Origin: Minisyncoccota bacterium | GTDB taxonomy: Bacteria > Patescibacteriota > Minisyncoccia > Moranbacterales > UBA2206 | NCBI GenBank assembly: GCA_031291955.1 | Contig: JARLIA010000001.1 | Span: forward strand, 5,300 to 69,299 | Reading direction: 5' to 3' | DNA length: 64,000 nt | The notes under the pieces: model-generated | What the model was told of the DNA's origin: nothing | Databases searched by the model: none | The model's input: only the letters and a program-made list of their open reading frames with translations | Position numbers and translations under genes: made by a program | Shown here: positions 4,325 to 58,343 of the stretch, in pieces | How the letters are laid out: the number at the start of each line of letters is the position of its first letter | How positions within the stretch are numbered: position 1 is the first letter of the stretch

Positions 4325-6028
4325 ATGAATTTAAAGAAGAGATTACGATATAAATTCGCGGGGGTGATTGTGCTGGCGGTTGTGGCCGGACTGATTGCTT
4401 ATCCTAAGGCGGTCGCCAAAATCCCGCCGGTTTACAATGCCCTCAACAAACTCAAAATAAACCTGGGACTGGACCTCCAGGGCGGTTTTCGTTTGGAATA
4501 TAATGCTGATCTGTCCCAGATCGATTCTGCCAAAAGAGCCGAAGCTATGCAGTCTCTCCAGGCGGCCATCGAACGGCGGGTGAATGCCTTCGGAGTGTCT
4601 GAACCGAATGTTTCCATTGCCCGTTCCGGATCAGAAGAACATCTGATTGTGGAGCTGGCCGGCGTCCGAAATGTTGAACAGGCTAAATCGATTATCAAAA
4701 GCGCGCCGCTTTTGGAATTCAAGACGGAAAAAATCGACACTCCAAATCAGATTCCGCAGACCCAGCTGGATGCCGAGAATAAAGCCGCTCAGGCTGAGGC
4801 GGACAACGTTTTGCAACTTGCCGAAAAACCTGGTGCTGATTTCGCGGCACTCGCCAAACAGTACAGCCAAGATCCAGGCTCCAAAGACAACGGTGGCGAT
4901 CTGGGTGAAGTGACCAAGGGTGAAATGGTGCCGGAGTTTGACAACGCTCTTTTTGATTCCAATCCAAAAGATTGGAACGGGGACATTTATGGCAAAGTAG
5001 TCGAATCGCAATTTGGCTGGCACATTATCAAAAAAATTTCCGCCAACGGAAGCGGCGCGACAGAAAAAATCCACGCCGCTCATATCTTACTGGCTAAAGC
5101 GACCCAGCCACAGCCGCAGGTTTCCTATGTCTCAACGGGTCTCACCGGTAAAAATTTGCAAAACGCCAAAGTTGATTTTTCCGGGCAAGATTTAGGCGGG
5201 GTGCAGATCGCTTTGCAATTCGATTCCCAGGGCGCTCAGCTATTTGATCAGATAACCAAAAACAACATTGGGAAACCGCTGGCCATATTTCTGGACGGCC
5301 AAATGATTGAGGCGCCGAACATCAAAACGGAAATTCCGAACGGCCAGGCAGTCATTACCGGCAGTTTCACGCTCGACCAGGCTAAGCAAGTGGTTCAGAA
5401 TTTGAACGAAGGCGCTTTGCCAGTGCCAATTACCTTGGTCTCTCAGGAATCGGTCGCGGCGACACTTGGTCAAACTTCTCTCACCACGGCTCTCAAGGCT
5501 GGCATAATCGGACTCATCATCGTCTTGATTTTTATGATCGTCTATTATCGCTATTTGGGACTGATCGCTTCTTTGGGACTTTTGATTTATACGGTGCTCA
5601 TGGTTTCAATTTTCAAGCTCTCACCGCTCACGCCTTGGGGGGTCACTTTCACTCTCTCCGGTATTGCCGGTCTAATTCTTTCGATCGGAATGGCGGTGGA
5701 TGCCAATGTCCTGATTTTTGAACGGACCAAAGAAGAGCTCCGGGCTGGCCGGAAGCTAAACAGTGCGGTGAATGAAGGTTTTAAACGGGCATGGCCGTCC
5801 ATCCGGGATGGAAATTTTTCTACTCTTCTCACTTCGCTCATTTTGATCTGGGTGGGAACCGGTTTTGTCAAAGGTTTTGCCATTATTCTGATTATCGGTG
5901 TGGTGGTTTCTATGTTCACGGCCATTGTTTTGGTGAAAATTATTCTGCAATTCACGCTCGGAGCGTGGGCGGAGAAAAGGATGTGGTTGATCGCGCGAGT
6001 TAAAAATTCTAAAGAAGAAAAAGTATAA
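4325..6028 (+). CDS. secD: protein-export membrane protein SecD with an inserted parvulin-type PPIase domain in the periplasmic P1 domain
   Basis: SecD motifs are present (NLGLDLQGGFRLEY; LAIFLDGQMIEAPNIKTEIPNGQAVITGSFT; C-terminal 6-TM bundle). Residues ~150-260 are a clear PpiC/parvulin domain (GADFAALAKQYSQDPGSKDNGGDLGEVTKGEMVPEFDNALF…SQFGWHIIKK). The true start is probably the ATG at 4325 (MNLKKRL…); the track's 4223 is a GTG extension. Confidence 0.9.
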   Translation: MNLKKRLRYKFAGVIVLAVVAGLIAYPKAVAKIPPVYNALNKLKINLGLDLQGGFRLEYNADLSQIDSAKRAEAMQSLQAAIERRVNAFGVSEPNVSIARSGSEEHLIVELAGVRNVEQAKSIIKSAPLLEFKTEKIDTPNQIPQTQLDAENKAAQAEADNVLQLAEKPGADFAALAKQYSQDPGSKDNGGDLGEVTKGEMVPEFDNALFDSNPKDWNGDIYGKVVESQFGWHIIKKISANGSGATEKIHAAHILLAKATQPQPQVSYVSTGLTGKNLQNAKVDFSGQDLGGVQIALQFDSQGAQLFDQITKNNIGKPLAIFLDGQMIEAPNIKTEIPNGQAVITGSFTLDQAKQVVQNLNEGALPVPITLVSQESVAATLGQTSLTTALKAGIIGLIIVLIFMIVYYRYLGLIASLGLLIYTVLMVSIFKLSPLTPWGVTFTLSGIAGLILSIGMAVDANVLIFERTKEELRAGRKLNSAVNEGFKRAWPSIRDGNFSTLLTSLILIWVGTGFVKGFAIILIIGVVVSMFTAIVLVKIILQFTLGAWAEKRMWLIARVKNSKEEKV

Positions 6029-6106: not shown

Positions 6107-7012
6107 ATGACCATGATGAAAATAATCAACAAACGAAAATATTTCTACGTTTTTTCCGGGACGCTGTTTGTGGCGAGTCTGGTGCTTTTAGCCGTGTGGG
6201 GTTTGCGTTTCGGCATTGATTTCACTGGCGGAACGGAAATGGATGTGGCTTTTTCCAAAACCGCACCGACTGTTGCCCAAATGAGCGGAGCGCTCAAGGA
6301 CCTGAAACTCGATGGGTTGACCATTCAGCCGGCCAGCAATAATCAAGCGATGTTGCAATATATGAGTTCCAGTGACGAGACTAACGCGCAAGTTTTCGCA
6401 GCCGTCCAAAAATTGGATCCGAACGTCAAACAATTGAGCGTGGATTTCATCGGTTCATCTGTTTCCGCCCAGCTCAAATCCAGCGCCGTCTGGGCCATCA
6501 TTTTGTCTGTTATTGGTATCGCCCTTTATATCGCCTGGGCTTTTCGGAAAGTTTCCCGCCCGGTCGCTTCCTGGAAATATGGAACGGGCGCGGTCATTGC
6601 GCTCGCGCACGATATCACAATTACCACCGGCGTCTTCGTTGTTCTCGGACATTTTTATGGCATTGAAGTCGGTGTGCCGTTCATTGCTGCTCTCCTCACT
6701 ATTTTGGGCTATTCCGTCAACGACACGATCGTGGTCTTTGACCGGACTCGCGAAAATTTGCTCCGCTCCAGCGGGAAAGAAGATTTTGAAGATGTGGTTG
6801 ACCGGTCGCTGAATCAAACCTTGGCCCGTTCCATCAACACTTCCATGACGGTGATCTTGGTCCTTTTCGCCCTCACTCTTTTCGGTGGCGCTTCCATTCA
6901 TGATTTTTCCCTGGCGCTTCTCATTGGCGTGACGTTTGGAACGTATTCGTCCATTTATGTCGCGTCGGCCTTGCTGGTGACGATATATAAGTTTCAGGTA
7001 AAGAAAGCTTAA
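6107..7012 (+). CDS. secF: protein-export membrane protein SecF
   Basis: It has the SecF N-terminus (INKRKYFYVFSGTLFVASLVLLAVWGLRFGIDFTGGTEM) and C-terminal TM bundle (VNDTIVVFDRTREN) typical of SecD/F. It directly follows secD. Confidence 0.9.
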   Translation: MTMMKIINKRKYFYVFSGTLFVASLVLLAVWGLRFGIDFTGGTEMDVAFSKTAPTVAQMSGALKDLKLDGLTIQPASNNQAMLQYMSSSDETNAQVFAAVQKLDPNVKQLSVDFIGSSVSAQLKSSAVWAIILSVIGIALYIAWAFRKVSRPVASWKYGTGAVIALAHDITITTGVFVVLGHFYGIEVGVPFIAALLTILGYSVNDTIVVFDRTRENLLRSSGKEDFEDVVDRSLNQTLARSINTSMTVILVLFALTLFGGASIHDFSLALLIGVTFGTYSSIYVASALLVTIYKFQVKKA

Positions 7013-7023
7013 TAAATTTTTTT

Positions 7024-7359
7024 ATGTTCAATCTATTTAAAAAAAATAAACTTGCTAGTGATAATACTCCATCCGATAGTAACCAACCTGTGTCAGTGTT
7101 CGCCACGCCACCCAAAAGTGATGATGGAAAATCAAGCGTCAAGGATAAGGTCATGGGCGTCGGCATGAATATGATGCAAAAAGTTGCCATGAAAAAGTTG
7201 GCCAAGATGAGTCCGCAGGAACAAGCCAAGATGATGCAGGATATGATGAAACCCGAAAATAAAGGCCAGCTCTTGTCCGCCATGGAGATGATGAGAAAAA
7301 GCGGCCAGATTACGGAACAGCAATATCAAGAAGCGAAGAAAAGACTGGGCATATTATGA
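7024..7359 (+). CDS. small Met/Gln/Lys-rich hypothetical protein
   Basis: The ORF is 111 aa with no TM segment and is Met-rich (MNMMQKVAMKKLAKMSPQEQAKMMQDMMKPENKGQ). It lies in the secDF operon position but is not YajC-like. Confidence 0.35.
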   Translation: MFNLFKKNKLASDNTPSDSNQPVSVFATPPKSDDGKSSVKDKVMGVGMNMMQKVAMKKLAKMSPQEQAKMMQDMMKPENKGQLLSAMEMMRKSGQITEQQYQEAKKRLGIL

Positions 7360-7436: not shown

Positions 7437-8453
7437 ATGCTGGAACATAAAATTAATGACATTAAAAAGCAAGTTCAAAGCGATGTTTTGGAAATAAAAA
7501 ACGGCGCGGAGCTTTTTGAGCTGGAAAAAAAATATCTGGGCCGGAAAAGCGAATTTACCAATATTTTAAAAAACCTGAAAGACTTGTCGCCCGAAGAGCG
7601 GAAAAAGGTTGGCGAGCTGGCCAATCGAACCAAGCGGGAAATTGAAAAAATTATTGCAACCAAAAAACAAGAGCTGGACGGCGCGGTTGATTTGGAAAAA
7701 GAAAGAATTGACGTAACGCTGCCTGGAGCGCGCCGCGGCGTGGGGCATTTGAATCCTATTTCGATAGTCAGAAACGAAATTGAAGACATTTTCACTTCGA
7801 TGGGTTTTGAAATCGCCGACGGTCCGGAAGTGGAAACGGAATTTTATAATTTCGACGCTTTAAATATTCCGGCCGATCATCCGGCCCGCGATATGCAAGA
7901 TACATTTTTTTTGAAAGATGACAAATTGGCGATGCGCAGCCAAACTTCGGCCATGCAGGCCAGGTTCATGCAGAAACACAAGCCGCCGTTTCGCATTATC
8001 GCGCCGGGAAAGGTTTTCAGAAACGAAGCCACCGACGCCACTCACGAACACACTTTCTATCAATTTGAAGCTTTGGTAGTCGGGGAGAACACCAACGTCG
8101 GCAATTTGAAACACATCGCCGAAGTTTTCTTTTCCGAATTTTTCCGGACCGATGTCAAAGTGAGACTCCGCCCCAGCTATTTTCCTTTCACGGAACCGAG
8201 TTTTGAATTCGACATCACTTGCACAATGTGCGGCGGAGTTGGTTGCAAGGGTTGTCGGGGCGGAGGGTGGCTTGAACTGGGCGGCGCCGGCATGGTCAAC
8301 CAGAATGTTTTCACGGCGGCCGGTTATCCGCGGAATAAATATCAAGGTTTCGCCTGGGGATTTGGGTTTGAGAGGCTGGCGATGATGAAATACAAAATCG
8401 ACGAAGTGCGATTGTTCCATGGCGGTGATTTACGTTTTGTAAAACAGTTTTAA
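7437..8453 (+). CDS. pheS: phenylalanine--tRNA ligase alpha subunit
   Basis: Class II aaRS motifs are present (FRNEATDATHEHTFYQFE; FGFERLAMM), along with the PheS Cys cluster (CTMCGGVGCKGCRGGGWLELGGAGMV). Confidence 0.95.
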   Translation: MLEHKINDIKKQVQSDVLEIKNGAELFELEKKYLGRKSEFTNILKNLKDLSPEERKKVGELANRTKREIEKIIATKKQELDGAVDLEKERIDVTLPGARRGVGHLNPISIVRNEIEDIFTSMGFEIADGPEVETEFYNFDALNIPADHPARDMQDTFFLKDDKLAMRSQTSAMQARFMQKHKPPFRIIAPGKVFRNEATDATHEHTFYQFEALVVGENTNVGNLKHIAEVFFSEFFRTDVKVRLRPSYFPFTEPSFEFDITCTMCGGVGCKGCRGGGWLELGGAGMVNQNVFTAAGYPRNKYQGFAWGFGFERLAMMKYKIDEVRLFHGGDLRFVKQF

Positions 8454-8458
8454 CTTAT

Positions 8459-10819
8459 ATGAAATATAGTTTCAATTGGCTGAAAGAATTATCCGGCACG
8501 AAAAATTCGCCTGAAAAAGTGGTGGAATTTTTGACGATGCGCGCGATGGAAGTGGAAGGGGTGGAAAAAATCGGCGGCATTCCGGATGGCGTGGTGGTCG
8601 GGAAAATTTTGGAAATCAAAAAACATCCGAACGCGGACAAATTGCAAATTACAAAAATTGACGTAGGGGCGAATAATTATTTGCCCATCGTTTGCGGCGC
8701 CTGGAACATTAATGTTGGCGACATGGTTCCGGTCGCCCTAGCCGGTACAAAACTGCCGAATAATATGGAAATCAAAGCGGCCGAAATCCGCGGCGAAAAA
8801 TCCCATGGCATGCTTTGCGCCGAAGATGAACTGGGACTCGGTAAAGATCACGGCGGAATATTAATTTTGTCCAAAAATGCTAAAGTGGGCGAGAAAGTTT
8901 CGAAATATCTGGGTAGTAGCGATACGGTCATTGAAATAAAAGTTCTGCCGGACCGGGCGCATGACGCGTTGAGCCATGTTGGCGTGGCCAGAGAAATTAC
9001 GGCATTGGAAAATAAAAAATTTGATTATGATTTTGACGGCTTGAAATTGCCGGGCAAAAAATCCAAGGTGTTATCTGTCAAAATTGAAGACAAAAAATTA
9101 TGTCCGCGCTATATCGGGGCGGTGATGACGGATGTCAAAATCCAATCGTCTCCACTCTGGATGCAAGAACGCTTGAAAGCCTGCGGGATAAAAGCGATCA
9201 ACAATGTCGTGGATGCGACCAATTATGTCATGCTGGAACTCGGCAGCCCATTGCATGCATTTGACGCGGATAAGTTGAAAGTGAAGAGTGAAAAGTTGAA
9301 TATCGTCGTGCGTCGGGCGAAAAATAAAGAAAAATTAACTTTATTGGATGATTCCCAAATTGAATTGAATAATTCAGATTTGTTGATAACCAATGGTGCG
9401 ACACCCTTGGCGCTGGCCGGGATCATGGGCGGGAAAGATTCTGGCATTTCGGATACGACCAAAACGATTGTCATCGAGGCGGCCAATTTCAACGCCGTCA
9501 ATATCCGCCGCACGCGAACGCGGTTGAACATAAAAACCGAATCGTCCGACCGCTTTGAAAAAGACCTCGATCCGAATCTGGCCGAAAAAGCCATGACGCG
9601 GATCATTGAAATCCTGGAACACACGGCCGACGCGAAGCTGGAGGGAATCGTGGATGTTTATCCGAACAAAATTAAACCTTGGAAAATAAATCTTGATTTG
9701 AATTATGTCAATAATCTCCTTGGCGAAAACGTGCCAACTAAAGAAATCAAAAAAATATTAGCCGCTCTGGGCATCAGTGCCACTATTCAACCATACAAGG
9801 CAGTATGCGTCATTTCGACTTTCAGAGTTGACATAAAAACGCCGGAAGAGCTGATTGAAGAAATCGGCCGGGTTTGGGGCTATGAAAAAATAAAACCGCA
9901 AGCGCTGATTGAACCAGTGGAACCGGCAAAAATTAACGAGCAAGTGTTTTTTGAACGCAAGGTTAAAAATATTCTCGTCGGTTTGGGTTTTGACGAGATG
10001 TATAATTATTCTTTCTACTCGCGCCGCGACACGGAAATTTGCGGTTTAAATGACGTAAAACATTACGAATTGGCCAATCCGATGAATCCGGAGCAGGAGC
10101 TGGTGCGGGCGAGTCTGGTGCCAAACATCTTGAAGGACGTTCGCCAGAATCTCAAATACTTTCAAAGTTTCGATATTTTTGAAATTGGCCGCGTGTATTA
10201 TCCAAACAACAACAAAGTTGAAGAAAAACGGATGTTGGTGATGACGACAGTGTTGGAAAAAGACAAATCGACTGAAACTTTCTTTCATCTCAAAGGCGCA
10301 TCGGAAGATTTGCTGGAACACTTAGGAATAAATGATGCTAATTTTAACTTAGACATTAAATGTCCAAGCGTGGCACACTCGGGGCGAACAGCCGGAATAC
10401 GAATCAATAATGAAAACATAGGAATTATTGCTGAAATCAATCCCACGGTTCTGGCGAAATATAAAATCAAAAACCGGGTGGCGATTTGCGAAATTGATCT
10501 CGAAAAACTGCTCGCGGAAACTCCTAAAACAAAAACCTACCAATCGATTGGCAAATTTCCGACGGTGACACGCGACATTTCCATGATTGTTCCAGAAGGC
10601 ATAGCTTACGCCCAAATCAAAAACCTGGTCCAAAAAACTGGCGGCGACTTGATTCATGACGTCCAACTTTTCGACTATTTCGAAGCCAAAAAAAGTTTGG
10701 CGATTAGAATTTCCCTGAGCGCCCAAGACCGGACGCTTGCGAGCGGGGAAGTGGATGAGGTGATGAGGAAAATTGTTTTAAAATTAGAAAAAGAATTAAG
10801 AGTGGAAGTAAGGAAGTAG
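8459..10819 (+). CDS. pheT: phenylalanine--tRNA ligase beta subunit
   Basis: The 786-aa product has the N-terminal tRNA-binding domain, B3/B4 and B5 domains, and the C-terminal anticodon-binding FDX-like domain pattern. It lies immediately downstream of pheS. Confidence 0.95.
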   Translation: MKYSFNWLKELSGTKNSPEKVVEFLTMRAMEVEGVEKIGGIPDGVVVGKILEIKKHPNADKLQITKIDVGANNYLPIVCGAWNINVGDMVPVALAGTKLPNNMEIKAAEIRGEKSHGMLCAEDELGLGKDHGGILILSKNAKVGEKVSKYLGSSDTVIEIKVLPDRAHDALSHVGVAREITALENKKFDYDFDGLKLPGKKSKVLSVKIEDKKLCPRYIGAVMTDVKIQSSPLWMQERLKACGIKAINNVVDATNYVMLELGSPLHAFDADKLKVKSEKLNIVVRRAKNKEKLTLLDDSQIELNNSDLLITNGATPLALAGIMGGKDSGISDTTKTIVIEAANFNAVNIRRTRTRLNIKTESSDRFEKDLDPNLAEKAMTRIIEILEHTADAKLEGIVDVYPNKIKPWKINLDLNYVNNLLGENVPTKEIKKILAALGISATIQPYKAVCVISTFRVDIKTPEELIEEIGRVWGYEKIKPQALIEPVEPAKINEQVFFERKVKNILVGLGFDEMYNYSFYSRRDTEICGLNDVKHYELANPMNPEQELVRASLVPNILKDVRQNLKYFQSFDIFEIGRVYYPNNNKVEEKRMLVMTTVLEKDKSTETFFHLKGASEDLLEHLGINDANFNLDIKCPSVAHSGRTAGIRINNENIGIIAEINPTVLAKYKIKNRVAICEIDLEKLLAETPKTKTYQSIGKFPTVTRDISMIVPEGIAYAQIKNLVQKTGGDLIHDVQLFDYFEAKKSLAIRISLSAQDRTLASGEVDEVMRKIVLKLEKELRVEVRK

Positions 10820-10821
10820 TT

Positions 10822-11391
10822 ATGAATAAAAAGCCGCTTCTTATTTTAATTTCTGGAGTTCCTGCAACAGGAAAAACAACGTTTGCGAAAAAGATATCTT
10901 CCGCGCTAAAATTGCCGTCATTCTCAGCCGACGAAATAAAAGAACTTATTTCCGATAGAATTTCCGGCAGAGAAAATGTTGAGTTGTTTAATAGAGTGGC
11001 TAGCGCTAGTTATGACATCTTGTACTGTAACTTGAAAAATATTTTAGAAGTTGGCGGTTCATGCGTTGCGGAGGCGCTTTTTATAAAAGAATATTCGGAA
11101 TCCAAAATTAAAGGCTTGCAGGATAAGTTTAGCTGCCGCGTCATTCAGATATATTTGAAAGGCGATGAAAAAATAATTTCGGAAAGATATGACAATCGGC
11201 ATCTAAGCGGAGAGCGTCATGGCAGCCACGTCCCGACGCTGGCGCTTTTATTGAAAAAATATGGCGGATATGATAGTTTAGTTGAAAAATCAAGATTGCA
11301 GGTTGGTGAAACGATAGAAATTGACACAACAGATTTTTCAAAAGTTGATTTTAGCGGGGTGTTTACTAGAATAGAAAATCTATTAAAATAA
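10822..11391 (+). CDS. P-loop NTPase / predicted small kinase (AAA_33-like)
   Basis: It has a Walker A motif (LILISGVPATGKTTFAKK) and is 189 aa. Its start overlaps the pheT stop (ATG at 10822, TAG at 10817-10819). Confidence 0.55.
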   Translation: MNKKPLLILISGVPATGKTTFAKKISSALKLPSFSADEIKELISDRISGRENVELFNRVASASYDILYCNLKNILEVGGSCVAEALFIKEYSESKIKGLQDKFSCRVIQIYLKGDEKIISERYDNRHLSGERHGSHVPTLALLLKKYGGYDSLVEKSRLQVGETIEIDTTDFSKVDFSGVFTRIENLLK

Positions 11392-11393
11392 TC

Positions 11394-11453
11394 ATGAAAG
11401 AAATTCCAAAAACATACGAACCAGGGGAATGTAAAAATAAAATTCGGGGGTAA
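11394..11453 (+). pseudogene. degenerate duplicate of the valS 5' end (19-codon remnant)
   Basis: It translates to MKEIPKTYEPGECKNKIRG*. Compare the genuine valS N-terminus MTMKQEIPRTYEPGKYEDD at 13184, about 1.8 kb downstream. DNA similarity extends over roughly 50 bp. Confidence 0.5.
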
Positions 11454-11484
11454 AATTAGTCTGTGGATAACTTAATATGACTTC

Positions 11485-11514
11485 GGTTTACTTTTTTTTG
11501 GGGGGGGGTATAAT
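11485..11514 (+). promoter_or_regulatory. candidate sigma70-type promoter with a T8G9 homopolymer spacer upstream of the repeat-protein gene
   Basis: A TTTACT-like -35 is followed by a TTTTTTTTGGGGGGGGG spacer (T8 at 11492-11499, G9 at 11500-11508) and then TATAAT at 11509-11514. Confidence 0.4.
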
Positions 11515-11545
11515 CGAAGTAGGTAAGAAAATAAACAAAAAAATC

Positions 11546-13057
11546 ATGGCAAAAAAATTTAAAAAGGCTGGCATTATAATTTCAGGAATTTTGTTTCTGT
11601 TTTTTTATTGCGGGCAAAGCGCTCTGAAAGTGAACGCGGACGATTCTTGGTCAAATGTAGGATCGGCCGGGTTTAGCAGTGATAAGGCTGATAACACACA
11701 AATGTTGTTTAATCCTTCTACCCACGAACCGTATGTTTGTTATGTTAACATTGATGCCGATGAGAATGCATCAGTAGTTGTACAAAAGTACAATGGATCA
11801 TCCTGGCAAGAGATTGGTAGTGCTATACCCATCAGCATAAACCATGATTTTTCCTGCGCTTTTAATCCGGTAACAAATGCGCCGTATGTGGCCTTCACTT
11901 CCCAAGGAACTAGTGTGCAAGTTTTTACAGTCGAAAGGTTTAGTGGTGGGTCGTGGGAACAAGTTGGTAGCACGAACCCAATCCAAATAAGCGAGGCGAG
12001 CGGAATATCACTAGCTTTTAATCCGTCTACCGGCGATCCATACGTTGCTTATGAAACTGTTATTGATGAAAATTATGTGTTAACAGTTTCAAAGTTTGAC
12101 GGAAGCGGCTGGGTGAGTGTGGGTGATCCGATAGAAGATATTGCCAGTGGTGACGCTGTCGCTAAATTAGTTTTTAATCCATCCACGGACAAACCATATG
12201 TTGCATATGTTTTATTTCCTGATTCGGATATTGACCAATTAATTGTAAAAGAATTTAACGGAACAGTTTGGCAAAATGTTGGCAACCCCGGATTAAACAG
12301 TGGGACTGTCGGGTTTGTGTCTGCAGCATTTGATTCCTCATCTGAGATGTACGTAGCCTATTCTGATTATGACTCTTCGCCAGGTGATTTGGTGGTTAAA
12401 AAATTTAACGGAACATCTTGGGCAAACGTTGGGACAGCCGGGGCTATCAGTAGCGGAAATGTTGAAAATGGGTCCATAGTTTTTAATCCCTCGGATGGTA
12501 ATCCTTATGTGGCGTTTAGTGACGATACCAACCAGAAAAAAATGACTGTCGTGAAGTTTGACGGATCAAACTGGAGCGCTGTTGGCTCGGCTGGATTCAG
12601 TGCTGGACAAGCAGATGGAACGTCTCTTGCTTTTAACCCTTCGAATAATGAACCATATGTAGTTTACTCGGATTACGCCAATAATTTAAAAGCTACTGTT
12701 ATGGGATATGACTCAACTTCTTCATCATCTTCATCTTCGCATAATTCCAGCAGTCACCACAAAAAGAAAACACCGCCACCACCGAAAAGAAAAACATACG
12801 ACTCTGCTTCAAAAATTGCCCGGGGACAAATACTGACCCAGTCTGGCAAAAGGTTTACCAAAAACTCCGACGTAGCCCTTTATTTCACCCGCCCAGACGG
12901 CACCTATTATCCGCCGATGACTGTCCATACGACTTCTTCCGGCAGCTTTTCTGTTTCGTATCATGTTACCAAGCCCGCCGGCACATATCATTGGTATGTG
13001 GTTGACTTGAAAAATCTGAATAAAAAAAGTAAAACCCTTTCCTATTCTGTCCACTAG
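11546..13057 (+). CDS. secreted protein with seven ~52-aa tandem repeats (probable beta-propeller), a poly-Ser/Pro linker and a C-terminal Ig-like domain
   Basis: It has a signal peptide (MAKKFKKAGIIISGILFLFFYCGQSALKVNA). Seven repeats share the pattern (S/N)W..VG…FNPS(T/D)..PYVA(Y/F). These are followed by SSSSSSSSHNSSSHHKKKTPPPPKRK and a beta-rich C-terminus. The track's start at 11477 would read through the poly-T/poly-G tract; the ATG at 11546 is the likely start. Confidence 0.7.
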   Translation: MAKKFKKAGIIISGILFLFFYCGQSALKVNADDSWSNVGSAGFSSDKADNTQMLFNPSTHEPYVCYVNIDADENASVVVQKYNGSSWQEIGSAIPISINHDFSCAFNPVTNAPYVAFTSQGTSVQVFTVERFSGGSWEQVGSTNPIQISEASGISLAFNPSTGDPYVAYETVIDENYVLTVSKFDGSGWVSVGDPIEDIASGDAVAKLVFNPSTDKPYVAYVLFPDSDIDQLIVKEFNGTVWQNVGNPGLNSGTVGFVSAAFDSSSEMYVAYSDYDSSPGDLVVKKFNGTSWANVGTAGAISSGNVENGSIVFNPSDGNPYVAFSDDTNQKKMTVVKFDGSNWSAVGSAGFSAGQADGTSLAFNPSNNEPYVVYSDYANNLKATVMGYDSTSSSSSSSHNSSSHHKKKTPPPPKRKTYDSASKIARGQILTQSGKRFTKNSDVALYFTRPDGTYYPPMTVHTTSSGSFSVSYHVTKPAGTYHWYVVDLKNLNKKSKTLSYSVH

Positions 13058-13183
13058 CAGATGCGTGCGAGTTTGATTTTTAGCAGGGTGTTCTTTATAA
13101 GGAGCGCCCTTTCTTTAATTATTTTTTATCTCCTTACATCCTCGCGTTTGACTTTCGCTTGTATTTCGGCTTAAATTAAGAAT

Positions 13184-15802
13184 ATGACTATGAAACAAGA
13201 AATCCCAAGAACCTACGAGCCGGGGAAATATGAGGACGACATTTATGCCCTCTGGGAAAAGTCCGGGTTTTTCAATCCGGATAATTTGAAATTGCCGAAA
13301 AACGCGAAAGCATACACCATTGTTCTGCCACCGCCCAACATCACTGACAAATTGCACTTGGGCCATGGTTCGATCATTGCCATTGAAGATCTGCTAATCC
13401 GTTTCCATCGCATGAAAGGATACAGGGCGCTCTATTTACCCGGAACCGATCACGCCGCGATTGCTACTCAGAACGTGGTGGAGAAAAAACTTCTGAAAGA
13501 AAAAGGACTGACCCGGCAAGAGCTCGGCAAGGAAAAATTCTTGGAAGAAGTTTGGAATTTTTTGCGCGTCACTCAAGCGACCATTCTCCAGCAAGCCAGG
13601 AAGATGGGCGGCTCGTTCGACTGGTCGCGCGAAGCTTTCACGCTGGATGACCAAAGGAAAAAAGCGGTCCGGAAAATGTTTGTCGATATGTACGATGCTG
13701 GAGTGATTTATCGCGGAGAAAGAATTGTCAATTGGTGTCCGCGCTGTAAGTCCACTTTGGCTGATGACGAATTGGAATATCAAGGACAAAAAACAAAATT
13801 ATATACGTTTAAATATGACAAAGACTTTCCGGTTTCGATCGCCACGACGCGTCCCGAAACAAAACTGGGCGACACGGCTGTGGCAGTCAATCCGAAAGAC
13901 GCAAGATACAAAAAACTTATTGGCCGGACTTTTTCCGCGGATTTTTTGGGCGTACCCTTGAAAATAAAGATTATCGCGGACCGCTCAGTCGAAAAAGATT
14001 TTGGGACTGGCGCACTTGGTGTCACGCCGGCCCATTCAATGGCGGATTGGAAGATGGCGGAAGACAATGGTTTGGAAGCAATCAAGGTTATCGATGAAAA
14101 CGGGAAAATTAAAAACAATTTCGGAAAATTTTCCGGTCTCGCTGTCGTGGAGGCAAGGGAAATGATTGTGGCCGAGCTGAAAAAGCACGCTCTCCTGGAA
14201 AAGGAAGAAGAGATAGAAAATAACTTGTCCGTTTGTTACCGTTGCGGCACGGCCGTGGAGCCGCTTCCGAGCAAGCAGTGGTTTGTGGCGGTGGATAAAA
14301 AATTGAAACGCTTGGGAAACAAGTCTTTGAAAGAAAAGGCGCTGGAAGCTGCCAAGAAAAAGAAAATAAAATTTATCCCATTTCGTTTTACCAAAAGATA
14401 TCTGGATTGGATGACCAATCTTCATGACTGGTGCATCTCTCGCCAGATCTGGTTCGGACACGAAATTCCCGTTTATTATAAAGGAGAAGAAATTTATGTG
14501 GGAGAAAAACCGCCGAAAGGTCCGGGTTGGGCGCAAGACCCGGATACATTGGACACCTGGTTTTCTTCCGGGATGTGGACCTTTTCAACTTTGGGCTGGC
14601 CCACCTCCGTCAAGACTTCGGCGGGCAAGCCGGATAAAATAATTAAAACCGGAGATTTGGCGAAGTTCCACCCGACCCAAGTGCTGGAAACAGGCTATGA
14701 AATCATCACGCTTTGGGTGTCGCGCATGGTTATGATGTCGCTTTTTGCGGTAGGTGAAATTCCTTTTGAGAATGTTTATTTGCACGGAATGGTTCTTGAT
14801 AGTTTCGGGAAAAAAATGTCTAAGTCAAAGGGAAACGGAATTAATCCGATCGATATGATAGACAAATTCGGCACTGACGCGGTACGACTGTCGCTTCTCA
14901 TCGGATCGACTCCCGGGAATGACATGCGGCTGTCGGAAGAAAAAATTGCTTCGTTTCGCAATTTCGTCACCAAACTTTGGAACATCTATCGCTACATGGC
15001 GACCACTTATCCGGATTTTAAATTGGTTGATAAGCTGGATAAAAAACATATCAAAACCGCGGCCGACCGTTGGATCGTTTCGCGCCTCCAGGAAACCGTC
15101 GCGGGAATGACAAAAGATCTGGATGATTACAAATTCTCAATGGCCGGCGAAAAACTCCAGCGCTTCACTTGGGACGATCTGGCCGATTGGTATCTGGAAA
15201 TTTCCAAGGTGGAAAAAAATAAGTACGTACTTGGGTACGTACTGACGTATGTACTGAAACTTTCCCATCCTTTCATGCCGTTCGTGACCGAAAAAATATT
15301 CCAAGATATATCTTTTGGCAAGAAAGTTTTGATGGTGGAGAAATGGCCGGCGGCCGACAAGAAGCTGATTGACAAAAAAGCGGAGAAGGAATTCAAGAAT
15401 CTGCAAGAAATAGTAACCCAAATCAGGAATCTTCGGGCTAGTTACAATATCGAGCCCAATAAAGTTATAACGGCTTATGCAAAAAACGAGAAGCATAAAG
15501 AAGCTGTCGAAAAACTAGCGAGGGTAAATATATTTGTTGCAAAGTCAACTGGCAAAGTAGTCGTATTGCCTGATTTCGAATTAGACATCGCTGATGTTAT
15601 TGATGTTGAGAAAGAAAAAGAAAAGATTAAAAAAAATATTACTCTTCTGGAAAATACTATAAGAAGATCGAGAGAGTTGATAAGTAACAAGCAATTTATG
15701 GATAAGTCCCCCAAAGAAGTGAGCAACAGGGCACTTGCTTCAATCGCTTATAATGAAAAAGAACTGAAAGAGCAAAAAGAATTATTGAGAAATTTGAACT
15801 AA
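13184..15802 (+). CDS. valS: valine--tRNA ligase
   Basis: Class I motifs are present (HIGH-like PPPNITDKLHLGHG; KMSKS), with a CP1 editing domain and a C-terminal coiled coil. The product is 872 aa. Confidence 0.95.
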   Translation: MTMKQEIPRTYEPGKYEDDIYALWEKSGFFNPDNLKLPKNAKAYTIVLPPPNITDKLHLGHGSIIAIEDLLIRFHRMKGYRALYLPGTDHAAIATQNVVEKKLLKEKGLTRQELGKEKFLEEVWNFLRVTQATILQQARKMGGSFDWSREAFTLDDQRKKAVRKMFVDMYDAGVIYRGERIVNWCPRCKSTLADDELEYQGQKTKLYTFKYDKDFPVSIATTRPETKLGDTAVAVNPKDARYKKLIGRTFSADFLGVPLKIKIIADRSVEKDFGTGALGVTPAHSMADWKMAEDNGLEAIKVIDENGKIKNNFGKFSGLAVVEAREMIVAELKKHALLEKEEEIENNLSVCYRCGTAVEPLPSKQWFVAVDKKLKRLGNKSLKEKALEAAKKKKIKFIPFRFTKRYLDWMTNLHDWCISRQIWFGHEIPVYYKGEEIYVGEKPPKGPGWAQDPDTLDTWFSSGMWTFSTLGWPTSVKTSAGKPDKIIKTGDLAKFHPTQVLETGYEIITLWVSRMVMMSLFAVGEIPFENVYLHGMVLDSFGKKMSKSKGNGINPIDMIDKFGTDAVRLSLLIGSTPGNDMRLSEEKIASFRNFVTKLWNIYRYMATTYPDFKLVDKLDKKHIKTAADRWIVSRLQETVAGMTKDLDDYKFSMAGEKLQRFTWDDLADWYLEISKVEKNKYVLGYVLTYVLKLSHPFMPFVTEKIFQDISFGKKVLMVEKWPAADKKLIDKKAEKEFKNLQEIVTQIRNLRASYNIEPNKVITAYAKNEKHKEAVEKLARVNIFVAKSTGKVVVLPDFELDIADVIDVEKEKEKIKKNITLLENTIRRSRELISNKQFMDKSPKEVSNRALASIAYNEKELKEQKELLRNLN

Positions 15803-16397: not shown

Positions 16398-16768
16398 ATC
16401 CTAGGTATTTATCAAGGTGGATCGAACGATCGATCTTCGTTTTTGCGAAGGTAGGAAAGTCCGGACTCCATCCGCCATTCCGGCGGAAAACAGGTAGCGG
16501 GTAACGCCCGTCTGGAGCAATCCACGAGGTGCGAGCAGAGACGCCAAGATTAGAAATAATCTCGGCATCCTAAGCGATTAGGATGAGTTCTTATGGCAAC
16601 ATAAGAGGTGAAACGGCTAAATCCTTACTCGGGAGCAAGGTCGTGTTCTGTGTTTTTAGCTAAACACGGAAAGTGCCGCTCGAGGCCGCCAGCAATGACG
16701 GTCCCAGATAAATGATCGTTCTCGACAGAATCCGGCTTACAGATCCGCCTTGATAAATACCTATAACT
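16398..16768 (+). ncRNA. rnpB: RNase P RNA (bacterial type A)
   Basis: Universally conserved elements are present: GGAAAGUCCGGACUCC (P4 5' strand), GGGUAACGCC, AAGAGGUGAAACGG, and ACAGAAUCCGGCUUA (P4 3' strand). A long P1 helix pairs 5' AGGTATTTATCAAGGTGGATC (16403-16423) with 3' GATCCGCCTTGATAAATACCT (16742-16762). The region is about 370 nt and ORF-free. Confidence 0.85.
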
Positions 16769-21328: not shown

Positions 21329-21865
21329 ATGGAATTTTCCCTAAATAAAAATAAAAAAAGTAGCATTTTAAAATCCAGATGGTTCATTAGCATTATCGGT
21401 GTAATTATGGTTTTTGCGCTAACTAGCGGAAATATTTTCTATAGTGATTTCGCTGCATCTGATATATATTTCGCTTTATTTTTTTTGGTATGTTTTATTA
21501 TCGCGTTGCTAATATTTTTTTATAAACAGAAAGCTTTTGGTAATTTTGTTGCGGACGAGGAGGGAATAAAAGTTAATGACAAGTTATATTCTTGGGATAA
21601 GGCCATTAATTACCATTGGCTAGGTGAAGCTCAGGGAGAAAGAATAGGTGCGGTTGGCATAGGCGGCGCATTGCAATATGACCCAATGAATCCCAATGAA
21701 TTTGCTGATACAAAAGTGGCTAGAATCAAAATTAAGGAAGGTCTTTTCCGTCATTCTTATATAAATCTAGAAGTTGATAATAATAAGGCGGGTGATTTAG
21801 TGAATGTTTTTGAACAACATCAAGTAAAACATCTTTCCCAATGGCGTGAGATAGTGGGAATATAA
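21329..21865 (+). CDS. membrane protein, function unknown
   Basis: It has two N-terminal TM helices followed by a soluble domain. I see no recognisable motifs. Confidence 0.4.
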   Translation: MEFSLNKNKKSSILKSRWFISIIGVIMVFALTSGNIFYSDFAASDIYFALFFLVCFIIALLIFFYKQKAFGNFVADEEGIKVNDKLYSWDKAINYHWLGEAQGERIGAVGIGGALQYDPMNPNEFADTKVARIKIKEGLFRHSYINLEVDNNKAGDLVNVFEQHQVKHLSQWREIVGI

Positions 21866-49361: not shown

Positions 49362-50009
49362 TTATTTTTTCCCTTCCCATTCATCAAAAAATTGTTTGAG
49401 ATATTTTTTCATAAATTCGTGCCTGTTTTTAGCTATTCGCTTGGCTGTTTTGGTATTCATTCTGTTTTTCAAGAGAAGTAATTTTTCGTAAAAATGATTA
49501 ATAGACGTGCTTTTGGCATTTTTATATTTCTCCGGGCTGGTGTGTGAAACGGGTTTTATTTTTGGATCATAAAATGGTCTGTCGGCATGAGCGCCATAGG
49601 AAAACACTCTAGCGATGCCAATAGCACCAATCGCATCAAGTCGATCAGCATCTTGCGCTATTTTACCCTCCAATGTGCTTATTTTGTTTTTAACTTTTGC
49701 GCCTTTGAATGAAATGTTAGCAACAATGCTTTCTATGTGACTTTCAATATTCTTGTCCAATTTGAATTGTTCAAGAAATTCCTTGATTTTTTCTTGAGCT
49801 AATTTTTCGTCAAAAAATTTATGGTCGAACACATCGTGCAAAAGAGCGGACATTTCCACTACGAACATATCAGCCGTTTCTTCTTTGGCCAATTTGAGGG
49901 CCATTTTCTGAACGCGTTCCGTATGTTGCCAATCATGACCGCTTTCGCCATTCTCCAATTTCTTTCTGGCAAATGAAATAGTTTTTTTGATGATTTCTTT
50001 TTTATTCAT
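49362..50009 (-). CDS. HD-domain phosphohydrolase
   Basis: HD motifs are present (GHDWQHTERV…; SALLHDVFDHK). Confidence 0.8.
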   Translation of the reverse strand: MNKKEIIKKTISFARKKLENGESGHDWQHTERVQKMALKLAKEETADMFVVEMSALLHDVFDHKFFDEKLAQEKIKEFLEQFKLDKNIESHIESIVANISFKGAKVKNKISTLEGKIAQDADRLDAIGAIGIARVFSYGAHADRPFYDPKIKPVSHTSPEKYKNAKSTSINHFYEKLLLLKNRMNTKTAKRIAKNRHEFMKKYLKQFFDEWEGKK

Positions 50010-53871: not shown

Positions 53872-55035
53872 ATGAAGAAAAACAAAAACATCGTCATTGG
53901 CATCAATGCAAGTTTCATCAGAAAGCCCAACAATGGCATCGGGCAAGTGACTGCCAATTTCCTAAAAACTTTGGCACGAATCACGAATCACGAATCACGA
54001 ATCATTTTGTATCTAGAAGAAGATCTGCCGCGTGATTTCAAGTTGCCGAAAAATTTTGAAAAAAGGATTTTTTTGCCGCCTTGGAAACGCGATGATTTGA
54101 TCCGCAAAATCTGGTGGGAAAAATATTCTCTGCCGAAAAAAATCAAAAAAGACAAGTGTGATGTTTTTCTCAGTCTCTACCAGTGCCCGACGATTTTAGA
54201 GGGTGACACAAAACACATAATGCTCGTTCATGATATTGTTCCTAAATTATTTCCCGAATATCTGGATAATTCGCGCAAGAAACATTATTGGCAGCTGACC
54301 GAATATGCGATCGCAAGGACCGACAAAGTTCTCACTGTTTCGCGCCACACGGAAAAAGATCTGATCAACTATCTGAATATTCCCGCCGGAAAAATCACAC
54401 CCAACTATATCGATGTTGACGAGATTTACAAAAAAAGCGTTTCTCAAAAAGAATCCGCCCGGGTACTGAAAAAATATAAACTGAAACCAGGCTACATCCT
54501 GGCCGGCGGGGGAATGGAGATTCGGAAAAACGTCGAAGGAGTTTTTCATGCCTACAAATTCATGCTGGAGAGAGGGCTGGCGGAAGATCTGCCGCCGCTG
54601 GTCGTCTTCGGAAAAATCCTGCCCAATCTTTCCCTGGCTTTCGACGCGGAAAATTTCTTGAAAGTCCTGAATATGACTAAGAAAGTGAGGCTTCTGGATA
54701 TGGTGCCGCAAAAAGATATGCCGGCTCTTTACAAAAACTCGTCCTTTTTCGTCTACCCATCGTATTATGAAGGATTTGGCATGCCGCCGCTCGAAGCTAT
54801 GAACCAAGGGAAGTCCGTCATTGTTTCTAAAAACTCATCTCTCCCCGAAGTGGGCGGCGACGGCGTCCTCTATTGCCAAGCCGACGACATTTATGATATC
54901 GCTATGGTCATGAAAAACGTCCTCTCCAACCCGCAACTCCGCGAAGATTTGTCTCGCCGGGCCAAACTCCAGGCTGAAAAATTCTCGTGGGAAAGGTTTG
55001 TGAAGAAAGTTCTGAATATAGTCAATGAGATCTGA
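53872..55035 (+). CDS. glycosyltransferase family 4
   Basis: The GT4 pattern is present (MKKNKNIVIGINA…; YEGFGMPPLEAMNQGKSVIVSKNSSLPEVGG). A (CACGAAT)4 heptamer repeat sits near the 5' end. TATAAT lies just upstream of the ATG at 53872. Confidence 0.8.
   Translation: MKKNKNIVIGINASFIRKPNNGIGQVTANFLKTLARITNHESRIILYLEEDLPRDFKLPKNFEKRIFLPPWKRDDLIRKIWWEKYSLPKKIKKDKCDVFLSLYQCPTILEGDTKHIMLVHDIVPKLFPEYLDNSRKKHYWQLTEYAIARTDKVLTVSRHTEKDLINYLNIPAGKITPNYIDVDEIYKKSVSQKESARVLKKYKLKPGYILAGGGMEIRKNVEGVFHAYKFMLERGLAEDLPPLVVFGKILPNLSLAFDAENFLKVLNMTKKVRLLDMVPQKDMPALYKNSSFFVYPSYYEGFGMPPLEAMNQGKSVIVSKNSSLPEVGGDGVLYCQADDIYDIAMVMKNVLSNPQLREDLSRRAKLQAEKFSWERFVKKVLNIVNEI
53975..54004 (+). repeat. perfect heptanucleotide tandem repeat (CACGAAT)x4 inside the GT4 CDS
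   Basis: Counted directly as cacgaat cacgaat cacgaat cacgaat ca. It encodes ARITNHESRII. The unit length is not a multiple of 3. Confidence 0.85.
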
Positions 55036-57197: not shown

Positions 57198-58343
57198 ATG
57201 ATTATCGGCATCGACATTAGAAATATCGGAAAAAAACGGACCGGCGACGAAGCGGTGTTTTTCAACCTGGTCAAAAACCTGGCCGCCATTGACGATAAAA
57301 ATGAATATCATCTATTCACCGACATCGCCAACACTCCAATATTACATAATATTGGAGTGGAGTTGGGCCTGACCGAAAAAGATAATTTCAAAATCATCAC
57401 GCTCCCAACCGCCAACAAATTCAGTTGGAATTTCTGGACTCTGCCGAAATATTTAAGAAAGAATCCAGTCGATATTTATCTGACCCAATACATCACGCCG
57501 TGGTTCGTGCCGAAAAAAATAAAAATAGTGACCATAATTCACGACGTTTCTTTCAAGGTTTACAAGCAATTCATCAAAAAGTCGGATCTTTTTTTCCTGA
57601 ATTGCCTGATTCCGCGCTCAATCAAACGCGCGGACAAAGTTGTCGGGGTTTCGAAATTTACAAGAAATGAAATCATCAAATATTATAAAACCGATCCGGC
57701 CAAAGTGGATTTTATTTACAATGCCGTTGCGGATGATTTTTCGGCTGAAGATACGTCGGAAGAAAAAATAAAATCTGTCAAAGAAAAATATCATCTCCCG
57801 GAAAAATACATCCTCTACATCGGCACGCTCCAGCCGCGAAAAAACATCTCGACTCTCGTCGAAGCCTTCGCGCTTTTGAAAATGGGCGGGAAATTCGATT
57901 CTTTGAAGTTGGTGATTGCGGGCGGCAAGGGTCACAATTATGACAAAAAAATCGACACGGCCGTTGCAAATAATAAATTGGAGCAGGACGTAATTTTCCC
58001 GGGTTTTGTCGCTGAAGAAGACAAGGCGGCGTTGATGGCGGCAGCGGATATTTTCTGTTTCCCGTCGTTCTATGAAGGATTCGGCATTCCGATCCTGGAA
58101 GCTATGAGCGTCGGCACGCCGGTTGCGGCGTCCGACATCGCCCCGCACCGGGAAATCGCCGACGAAGCGGCTCTCTTTTTCAATCCGGACGTGGCCGGTG
58201 AAATAACTCAAAAACTGACAGAGATCTTAAAAAACAACACTCTTCACAACAACCTCACAATAAAAGGCCACGCCCAAGTCCCAAAATTCTCCTGGCGGCA
58301 AACCGCCGAAAAAATGTTGAATATTTTTGAAAGTTTAAAATAG
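57198..58343 (+). CDS. glycosyltransferase family 4
   Basis: The GT4 pattern is present (MIIGIDIRNIG…; YEGFGIPILEAMSVGTPVAASDIAPHREI). Confidence 0.85.
   Translation: MIIGIDIRNIGKKRTGDEAVFFNLVKNLAAIDDKNEYHLFTDIANTPILHNIGVELGLTEKDNFKIITLPTANKFSWNFWTLPKYLRKNPVDIYLTQYITPWFVPKKIKIVTIIHDVSFKVYKQFIKKSDLFFLNCLIPRSIKRADKVVGVSKFTRNEIIKYYKTDPAKVDFIYNAVADDFSAEDTSEEKIKSVKEKYHLPEKYILYIGTLQPRKNISTLVEAFALLKMGGKFDSLKLVIAGGKGHNYDKKIDTAVANNKLEQDVIFPGFVAEEDKAALMAAADIFCFPSFYEGFGIPILEAMSVGTPVAASDIAPHREIADEAALFFNPDVAGEITQKLTEILKNNTLHNNLTIKGHAQVPKFSWRQTAEKMLNIFESLK

Follow-up and report, generated by a model that had tools for sequence, protein, structure and literature searches.

Foreign DNA can enter a chromosome by homology-facilitated illegitimate recombination, which combines one homologous anchor with one illegitimate join during natural transformation. 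Hochhut and Waldor are said to have found in 1999 that the element SXT supplies its target gene with a new promoter and new 5′ coding sequence, so that the gene stays functional. Another such element, Tn5253, is conjugative and roughly 65 kb in length. SXT sits in the 5′ end of prfC, a conserved translation gene (PMC2791158). Tn5253 integrates after nucleotide (nt) 20 of the essential gene rbgA, duplicates 17–84 nt, restores the coding sequence (CDS), adds one codon in E. faecalis and forms circles containing attTn (PMC8571831). Here we analyse a 64,000-nt stretch of contig JARLIA010000001.1 (the window), from a metagenome-assembled genome (MAG) of Candidatus Pacebacteria/Paceibacterota (Patescibacteria). 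By its sequence, a 19-codon open reading frame (ORF) in this window, the stub, reads as a dead copy of the first ∼17 codons of valS, the valyl-tRNA synthetase gene. A repeat-protein gene (NCBI MDR3582744.1, locus tag P4L62_00065) lies between the stub and the intact valS.

The stub directly follows a P-loop kinase gene, whose TAA stop (11389–11391) is separated by the dinucleotide TC from the stub ATG at 11394; the stub TAA ends at 11453. A position-specific matrix built from 42 distinct valS N-termini of other organisms was scanned over six frames (82,701 positions). The real valS scored 36.7 bits and the stub 29.8 bits, and the next best of the positions scanned reached 3.2 bits. The stub matched the conserved valS N-terminal signature [ME]-x-E-[IL]-P-K-x-Y-[ED]-P and keeps the canonical MKEIPKTYEP. 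The continuation of the signature, YED.IY..W, is lost in the stub, which reads CKNKIRG and then stops. That the relic is a genuine valS start follows directly from these comparisons.

At the DNA level, a hand count gave 30 of 36 identical nt (83%) between the stub and the window's own valS start, or 38 of 51 (75%), with one 3-nt gap at a CAA codon. The initial annotation had placed a fragment resembling the valS N-terminus right behind the kinase stop, with ∼80% identity over ∼45 bp. Its coordinates were correct and its figure was close to ours, and the similarity survives nucleotide alignment with a significant valS N-terminal signature. Judged against the whole 64 kb, the DNA similarity is borderline, with a local score of 37 where shuffles gave 27.3 ± 2.4 and 1 of 200 reached it. 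Within the 2,370-nt pheT–valS gap it is clear (37 against 20.1 ± 2.3, 0 of 300 shuffles). Using blastn, the stub matched the valS starts of relatives at 35/37 nt (L114), 42/51 nt (L088, the closest relative; JGI Ga0502070_00384) and 31/35 nt (L003), all three being closer to the stub than the window's own valS. Homology is detectable over 11394–11444 (∼17 codons, to about nt 51) and is strongest in the first 36–37 nt. The Gly at stub codon 11 (EPG) is common to the closest relatives L088, L114 and L089.

The working valS opens at 13184 (MTMKQEIPRTYEPGKYEDD); NCBI starts the gene at the second ATG, 13190. Compared with the canonical form, this working start has an extra CAA (Gln) and a Lys-to-Arg exchange, at a site where all 42 reference N-termini have Lys. 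A run of 26 nt in this start (ACCTACGAGCCGGGGAAATATGAGGA) is identical to L088, and in a sliding-window comparison with L088 identity was 86–98% over residues 1–600, with no 5′ mosaic. On this evidence valS is intact and native, and its altered start is consistent with a rebuilt 5′ end. Together the two copies form an imperfect direct repeat of ∼51 nt (11394–11444 and 13190–13243) that bounds the insert, and the valS CDS is restored. The copies are not a fresh duplication, being set apart by 13 mismatches over 51 positions and by one codon.

Compared with L088, the copies diverge in opposite directions: valS is divergent over its first ∼24 nt and then identical over the 26 nt, and the stub shows the reverse (nt 1–20 identical). 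This pattern was first taken as evidence for a single crossover and was then downgraded to weak evidence, because the first 20 nt of the stub correspond to a motif conserved at the DNA level. A metagenome scan found GAAATTCCAAAAAC.TACGA.CC conserved in valS of very distant bacteria, and 28 of 28 matches were genuine valS starts, with no stub among them. Ahead of the working start lies a promoter-like site (TTGACT, 18 nt, TAAATT; 9 of 12 positions) that would permit transcription of valS independently of the upstream operon after the insertion. No T-box or other RNA element was found upstream of valS.

The order stub–repeat gene–valS cannot be put down to faulty assembly, because three Logan assemblies were 100% identical to the window across the stub, the repeat gene and the valS start, and the flanks in a second NCBI MAG agree. 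The second MAG holds flanks only, on contigs that end at 11341 and start at 12719 (the latter 99.9% identical), and in it too the 3′ end of the repeat gene lies directly upstream of valS. A single arrangement was present in every retrieved assembly of the organism, three of which span it whole.

We then compared gene order in related genomes. L088 is 91% identical to the window in secF, 92% in pheS, 72% in pheT, 81% in valS and 89% in the Bac_transf gene, and reads pheT, 82 nt, valS, with neither the kinase nor the repeat gene. In most close relatives the pheT stop abuts valS, and at the empty sites of L003, L097 and L099 the junction is pheT TAA(T)ATG valS. The order pheT–kinase–valS was found in L083, where the kinase is 55% identical, overlaps valS by ATGA and precedes a valS reading MKEISKQYDF, and in L087, where it is 58% identical and a 4-nt spacer (TAA-AATA-GTG) leads to a valS reading VNEIPKTYEANKYEDEIYK. 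The stub, 2 nt past the kinase stop, agrees in position with both of these kinase–valS junctions. The repeat-protein gene was present in 0 of ∼20 related loci, and the best homologue of its product among 5.8 billion proteins shares 46% identity with it.

The kinase is absent from L088, L003, L034, L089, L090, L097, L099 and L126, and only 8 homologues were found in the 5.8 billion proteins. Against IMG/VR it gave only a 40-residue, 41%-identical match on one contig. Its GC content at third codon positions (GC3) is 0.347, the second lowest of 51 ORFs in the window (mean 0.503 ± 0.068, s.d.), and that of the repeat gene (0.377–0.38) is the fourth lowest. Both genes are accessory and compositionally atypical, and the kinase itself is wedged between pheT and the old valS start. 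A longer duplication, pairing the kinase 3′ end with the region upstream of valS, was considered and rejected for want of homology (370 of 500 shuffles reached the score).

These results bear on the larger claims of the initial annotation, which had seen the apparent footprint of an insertion or duplication within a housekeeping operon, pheST–kinase–valS, and on that condition had taken the repeat gene for a recently acquired accessory cassette. The accessory status of the repeat gene held, as did the expectation that in related genomes the kinase stop would stand directly before valS (L083, L087) and that no relative would carry the repeat gene. The footprint is supported by synteny and by the identity of the relic; the copies are not fresh duplicates and the mechanism is unproven. 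The operon has to be revised: kinase–valS adjacency recurs in L083 and L087, but the order is not conserved and the kinase is itself accessory. Recency applies in a relative sense only, since the insert is absent from L088 (pheS 92%, valS 81%) but is the sole arrangement in all assemblies of the organism.

The inserted gene is accessory cargo encoding a predicted secreted or anchored propeller protein. Its AlphaFold model (mean predicted local distance difference test score, pLDDT, 80.8) comprises an N-terminal signal or transmembrane (TM) helix, a seven-bladed beta-propeller, a disordered Ser/Lys/Pro-rich linker and a small C-terminal beta domain. The propeller blocks, seven repeats over residues ∼35–388, are mostly above 90, and the gene has internal repeats of ∼150 nt. 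Foldseek against the PDB gave probability 1.0 to BT3686-type glycosidases, sialidases and PLL/PHL/RSL lectins at 9–14% identity. Given the predicted helix and propeller, calling the cassette a surface-protein cassette, as was done initially, is fair. The family is common among Bacteroidota type IX secretion system (T9SS) proteins, and no relatives of the repeat protein turned up in IMG/VR.

The insert looks self-contained for expression, with promoter-like and terminator-like sites of its own and the promoter-like site ahead of valS. The best sigma-70-like match in 10700–13400 (10 of 12 positions) is TTTACT, a 16-nt spacer (T7G9) and TATAAT. The spacer is nearly filled by a T8 run (11492–11499) and a G9 run (11500–11508), the latter being the only G or C run of at least 7 in the 64 kb. 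Phase-variable promoters of surface-protein genes with homopolymer spacers are known, for example with poly-G between −35 and −10 in Neisseria, and the T8G9 spacer is a candidate slipped-strand switch. A start at ATG 11477 would place T8G9 in frame inside a longer repeat-protein ORF. No length variation of T8G9 was found among the window, L001, L002 and L122, which are consensus assemblies and could hide read-level variation. The terminator-like hairpin, 28 nt past the repeat-gene stop, has an 11-pair stem (AGGGTGTTCTTTATAAGGAGCGCCCT) followed by TTCTTTAATT.

The gene orders collected in Table 1 show that the pheT/valS boundary is a recurrent entry hotspot for small genes in this clade. In L034 (JAJYBE010000011) the final 79 nt of pheT, stop included, occur on both sides of the inserted Bro-N gene as a direct repeat (72/79, 91%; 4848–4926 and 5877–5955), and the relic on the downstream side still runs into valS as TAATATG. 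This is a mirror image of the window scar and an independent parallel to it. The Bro-N protein has 61–65%-identical relatives on two IMG/VR contigs, and no pheT-like flanks were found beside the homologues on those two viral contigs. Separately, the valS of L034 (5957–8569) is only 49% identical to that of the window, against 61–72% for pheS, pheT and Bac_transf, and its first ∼30 residues are still clade-like, which suggests a valS replacement in that lineage.

Elsewhere at the junction, no gene-end relics were found in the cargo of L088, L089, L090 and L106. A candidate pheT 3′ relic in L100 (27 against 17.4 ± 2.8) lies inside the 82-aa membrane-protein ORF and is probably a chance match. 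The 82-nt spacer of L088 showed no significant similarity to the window's intergenic regions (36 and 128 of 500 shuffles, respectively, scored as high). When 1.7 Mb of fetched loci were screened for 35–250-nt direct repeats flanking inserts, only L034 stood out at the junction and nothing pointed to a pattern of wider occurrence, the 26 remaining repeat pairs not having been compared with gene ends. In L114, whose valS is 79% identical to that of the window, the HIT-family-like gene overlaps valS by ATGA and is preceded by a GTAAGTAACAAG-type tandem repeat (L114 1–670); no pheT match was found in the ∼650 nt of contig upstream of valS. In L088, a 38-nt segment inside the valS 3′ region (9654–9691) recurs 2.7 kb downstream at 12405–12442, in the intergenic stretch that follows the Bac_transf gene, and the two are 97% identical.

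We consider it probable that the window locus arose by a duplication-generating, recombinase-independent insertion that was filtered by selection for an intact valS. In the ancestor, or in a close donor lineage, valS would have begun 2 nt past the kinase stop; it is still kinase-adjacent in two other Patescibacteria. A segment of ∼1.75 kb would then have come between the old start and the valS body, comprising the promoter with the T8G9 spacer, the propeller-protein gene, the terminator-like hairpin, the second promoter-like site and a fresh valS start. The first ∼54 nt of valS would thereby be present again at the right end of the insert, remodelled by the extra Gln and the Lys-to-Arg exchange, and the old start, severed after ∼51 nt, would run into a stop and decay. 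As valS is essential, only events leaving a complete reading frame would survive. Such an event could have been an illegitimate join inside valS at the left end, paired with a right-hand join lying upstream of valS, or a single-crossover integration of circularised foreign DNA via a short valS-like stretch. We infer the order of events; we also infer the mechanism, since a recombinase, terminal repeats, a free element and a valS mosaic were all not found. Sliding-window identity of valS and pheT to five relatives revealed no foreign segment beside the insert, and the pheT 3′ end was not aberrant. There is no evidence in the sequence for use of a long homologous anchor.

Several points weigh against an insertion into a kinase-adjacent valS. 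No close relative carries kinase and valS without the repeat gene; the kinase is missing from all of them, and the kinase–valS genomes L083 and L087 are distant (valS ∼48% and kinase 55–59% identical). The resident lineage may thus never have had the kinase directly before valS, and the stub may have come with the kinase. Several of the 13 differences between the copies are synonymous, which a simple recent duplication does not predict. The stub diverges unevenly from L088, at 0 of its first 20 nt and then at 9 of 31, so that it is uncertain whether homology really ends near nt 36 or near nt 51.

In an alternative reading, the stub hitch-hiked with the kinase. A fragment from a pheT–kinase–valS genome, consisting of the kinase and the first ∼50 nt of the donor valS, would have been inserted after pheT in an L088-like resident, perhaps with the repeat gene already upstream of valS. 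The resident valS would then never have been interrupted, and the repeat gene would not have been inserted into it. Such a history would account for a very low-GC3 kinase that every close relative lacks, and for the tight kinase–stub spacing, equal to the kinase–valS spacing in L083 and L087. The kinase is also better conserved between the window and these genomes (55–59%) than valS or the pheT C-terminus (∼48–50%), which suggests lateral movement of the kinase. Third positions in the stub are A/T-rich (ACA, GAA, CCA) like those of the kinase, the working valS using ACC, GAG and CCG like L088. However, stub codon 11 is Gly (EPG) as in the closest relatives, in place of EAN (L087) or DFS (L083), and the best DNA match of the stub is the close relative L114. 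As pheT has no foreign 3′ segment, the kinase fragment would have to be joined illegitimately at either end and yet in codon-tight fashion, and the repeat gene would still have to enter this junction by another event, itself unexplained. We regard this alternative as unlikely.

A duplication bounding the insert could also mark a site-specific integrative element, of which the locus would be a remnant. In this case attL would be the stub and attR the valS start, the element would target the 5′ end of valS and carry a frame-restoring valS-start mimic, and its recombinase would since have been lost or would act in trans. The architecture is that of Tn5253 in rbgA, with a ∼51-nt 5′-end duplication of an essential gene, a restored CDS and one extra codon. 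A crossover near nt 20–25 predicts the opposite-direction divergence from L088, and L034 offers the mirror case at the pheT 3′ end with phage-type Bro-N cargo. We nevertheless hold this origin to be quite unlikely. The 1.75-kb insert lacks a recombinase, the Pfam listing shows none within ∼10 kb, and there are no terminal inverted repeats at the boundaries. The predicted attP junction (5′ part of the right copy plus 3′ part of the left copy) was not found in metagenome contigs, IMG/VR held no valS-start-like sequence, the repeat gene was not on viral contigs, and no other genome had the same cargo at valS. The divergence pattern is itself weak, given the conservation of the stub's first 20 nt in very distant bacteria. 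Features of an insertion sequence (IS) or transposon were likewise missing: there is no transposase, and the only inverted repeat near both ends (25 nt, 76% complementarity) lies off the boundaries. A 51-nt duplication is far beyond the usual length of a target-site duplication.

A broader version of recombination inside a gene end, which we rate as very unlikely, would make the pheT/valS junction of this Paceibacteria clade a dedicated landing site for tiny, recombinase-less single-gene cassettes carrying mimics of neighbouring gene ends, namely the valS 5′ end in the window and the pheT 3′ end in L034. A single crossover inside the gene would rebuild it, and the cassettes would be mobilised in trans or by host recombination. 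If true, ultra-small bacteria would possess a gene-capture system that is neither an integron nor an integrative conjugative element.

It is extremely improbable that the stub resembles valS by chance, or that it is a true small gene with no relation to valS, and the matrix scan and blastn in our view already refute this: the region is A-rich and for DNA alone against the whole window 1 in 200 shuffles equals the observed score, but on the independent N-terminus matrix its 29.8 bits compare with a background maximum of 3.2, it sits exactly where kinase-bearing relatives start valS, and it shares 35 of 37 nt with the L114 valS start.

Table 1. Features around the valS-start relic in the window, and contents of the pheT–valS gap in relatives (aa, amino acids).
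Genome	Feature	Position	Strand	Remark
Window	secF	6107–7012	+	
Window	111-aa ORF	7024–7359	+	
Window	pheS	7437–8453	+	
Window	pheT, phenylalanyl-tRNA synthetase beta subunit	8459–10819	+	left core gene of the junction
Window	P-loop kinase, 189 aa, AAA_33/zeta-toxin-like	10822–11391	+	Pfam AAA_33, E = 4.8e-8
Window	valS-start relic (stub), 19 codons, MKEIPKTYEPGECKNKIRG and stop	11394–11453	+	
Window	promoter-like site of the repeat-protein gene	11487–11514	+	sigma-70-like pattern match
Window	repeat-protein gene, 503 aa	11546–13057	+	alternative in-frame ATG 11477 gives 526 aa
Window	terminator-like hairpin and T-rich tail	13085–13120	+	hairpin 13085–13110
Window	promoter-like site ahead of valS	13148–13177	+	pattern match only
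Window	working copy of the duplicated segment, first 18 valS codons (MKQEIPRTYEPGKYEDDI)	13190–13243	+	
Window	valS, valyl-tRNA synthetase, intact, 870–872 aa	13184/13190–15802	+	Pfam tRNA-synt_1, E = 1.3e-117, plus Anticodon_1
L003/L111/L115, L097/L127/L128, L099/L116	gap empty			direct abutment, TAA(T)ATG
L088	82-nt spacer			no ORF
L089	119-aa 23S-IVP/bAvd-like ORF			
L090	94-aa ORF			
L126	101-aa ORF			
L100	82-aa membrane ORF			
L106	79-aa Cys-rich ORF			
L114	HIT-like ORF			directly before valS
L034	283-aa Bro-N protein			

The identity of pheT rests on its ORF and on the Pfam domains of the same gene in L001. Downstream of valS, a bacterial class A RNase P RNA (16414–16755, + strand; 140 bits, full-length model match) sits in the ∼600-nt gap between a small membrane ORF that follows valS and the Bac_transf gene. 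No tRNA genes, considered as integration targets, were found in the 64-kb window. Low GC3 was also seen in the ORFs at 21329–21865 (0.279) and 49362–50009 (0.361), which may be additional acquired genes, one of them within a glycosyltransferase cluster. A 47-nt direct repeat with 81% identity (54756–54802 and 58061–58107, 3.3 kb apart) probably lies between paralogous glycosyltransferase-like genes.

The locus represents a known kind of event, an ordinary gene-insertion scar with a restored essential gene. As a single case whose mechanism we infer, it is useful for annotation rather than surprising. It offers a clean, datable scar of an accessory surface-protein gene entering a packed, essential translation operon in a reduced Patescibacteria genome, with the cell surviving. 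To our knowledge, mechanisms of gene flux in Patescibacteria are little described, and this junction, at which gene ends were duplicated twice independently, is a concrete place in which to seek one. With the T8G9 promoter spacer ahead of its gene, the propeller protein is a candidate for a variable factor on the cell surface that serves in attachment to a host.

Several described systems resemble the locus in part. As in genomic islets, which are integration hotspots between core genes, the pheT/valS junction is either empty or holds differing small genes. Its cargoes, in contrast, are single small genes in a tightly packed tRNA synthetase operon, and in two lineages the insertions reach into the flanking gene and duplicate its end. 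What defines SXT is its Int tyrosine recombinase together with attP and attB sequences that are almost identical, and the window insert shows neither. With phase-variable promoters the insert shares a G9 run (plus T8) that fills the spacer upstream of a predicted secreted or anchored protein gene; it differs in that the tract is constant in four assemblies and possibly lies inside the longer ORF from 11477.

Homology-facilitated illegitimate recombination would likewise join foreign DNA illegitimately on one side and via a conserved gene on the other, and it can leave a truncated duplicate of the end of the anchor gene. In contrast to that process, no mosaic is seen in the window's valS or pheT, so that the anchor, if any, would be very short or the donor very close. 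Compared with Tn5253, the window insert measures only 1.75 kb, carries one cargo gene and no recombinase, and is bounded by copies that are only ∼75–83% identical; no circular form or second integration of it was found. The likeness to Tn5253 lies in the architecture: in each case an essential gene is entered shortly after its 5′ start and a stretch of tens of nt (∼51 in the window) is present in direct copies on both sides of the insert, and the window's downstream copy, too, restores the CDS and gains a codon.

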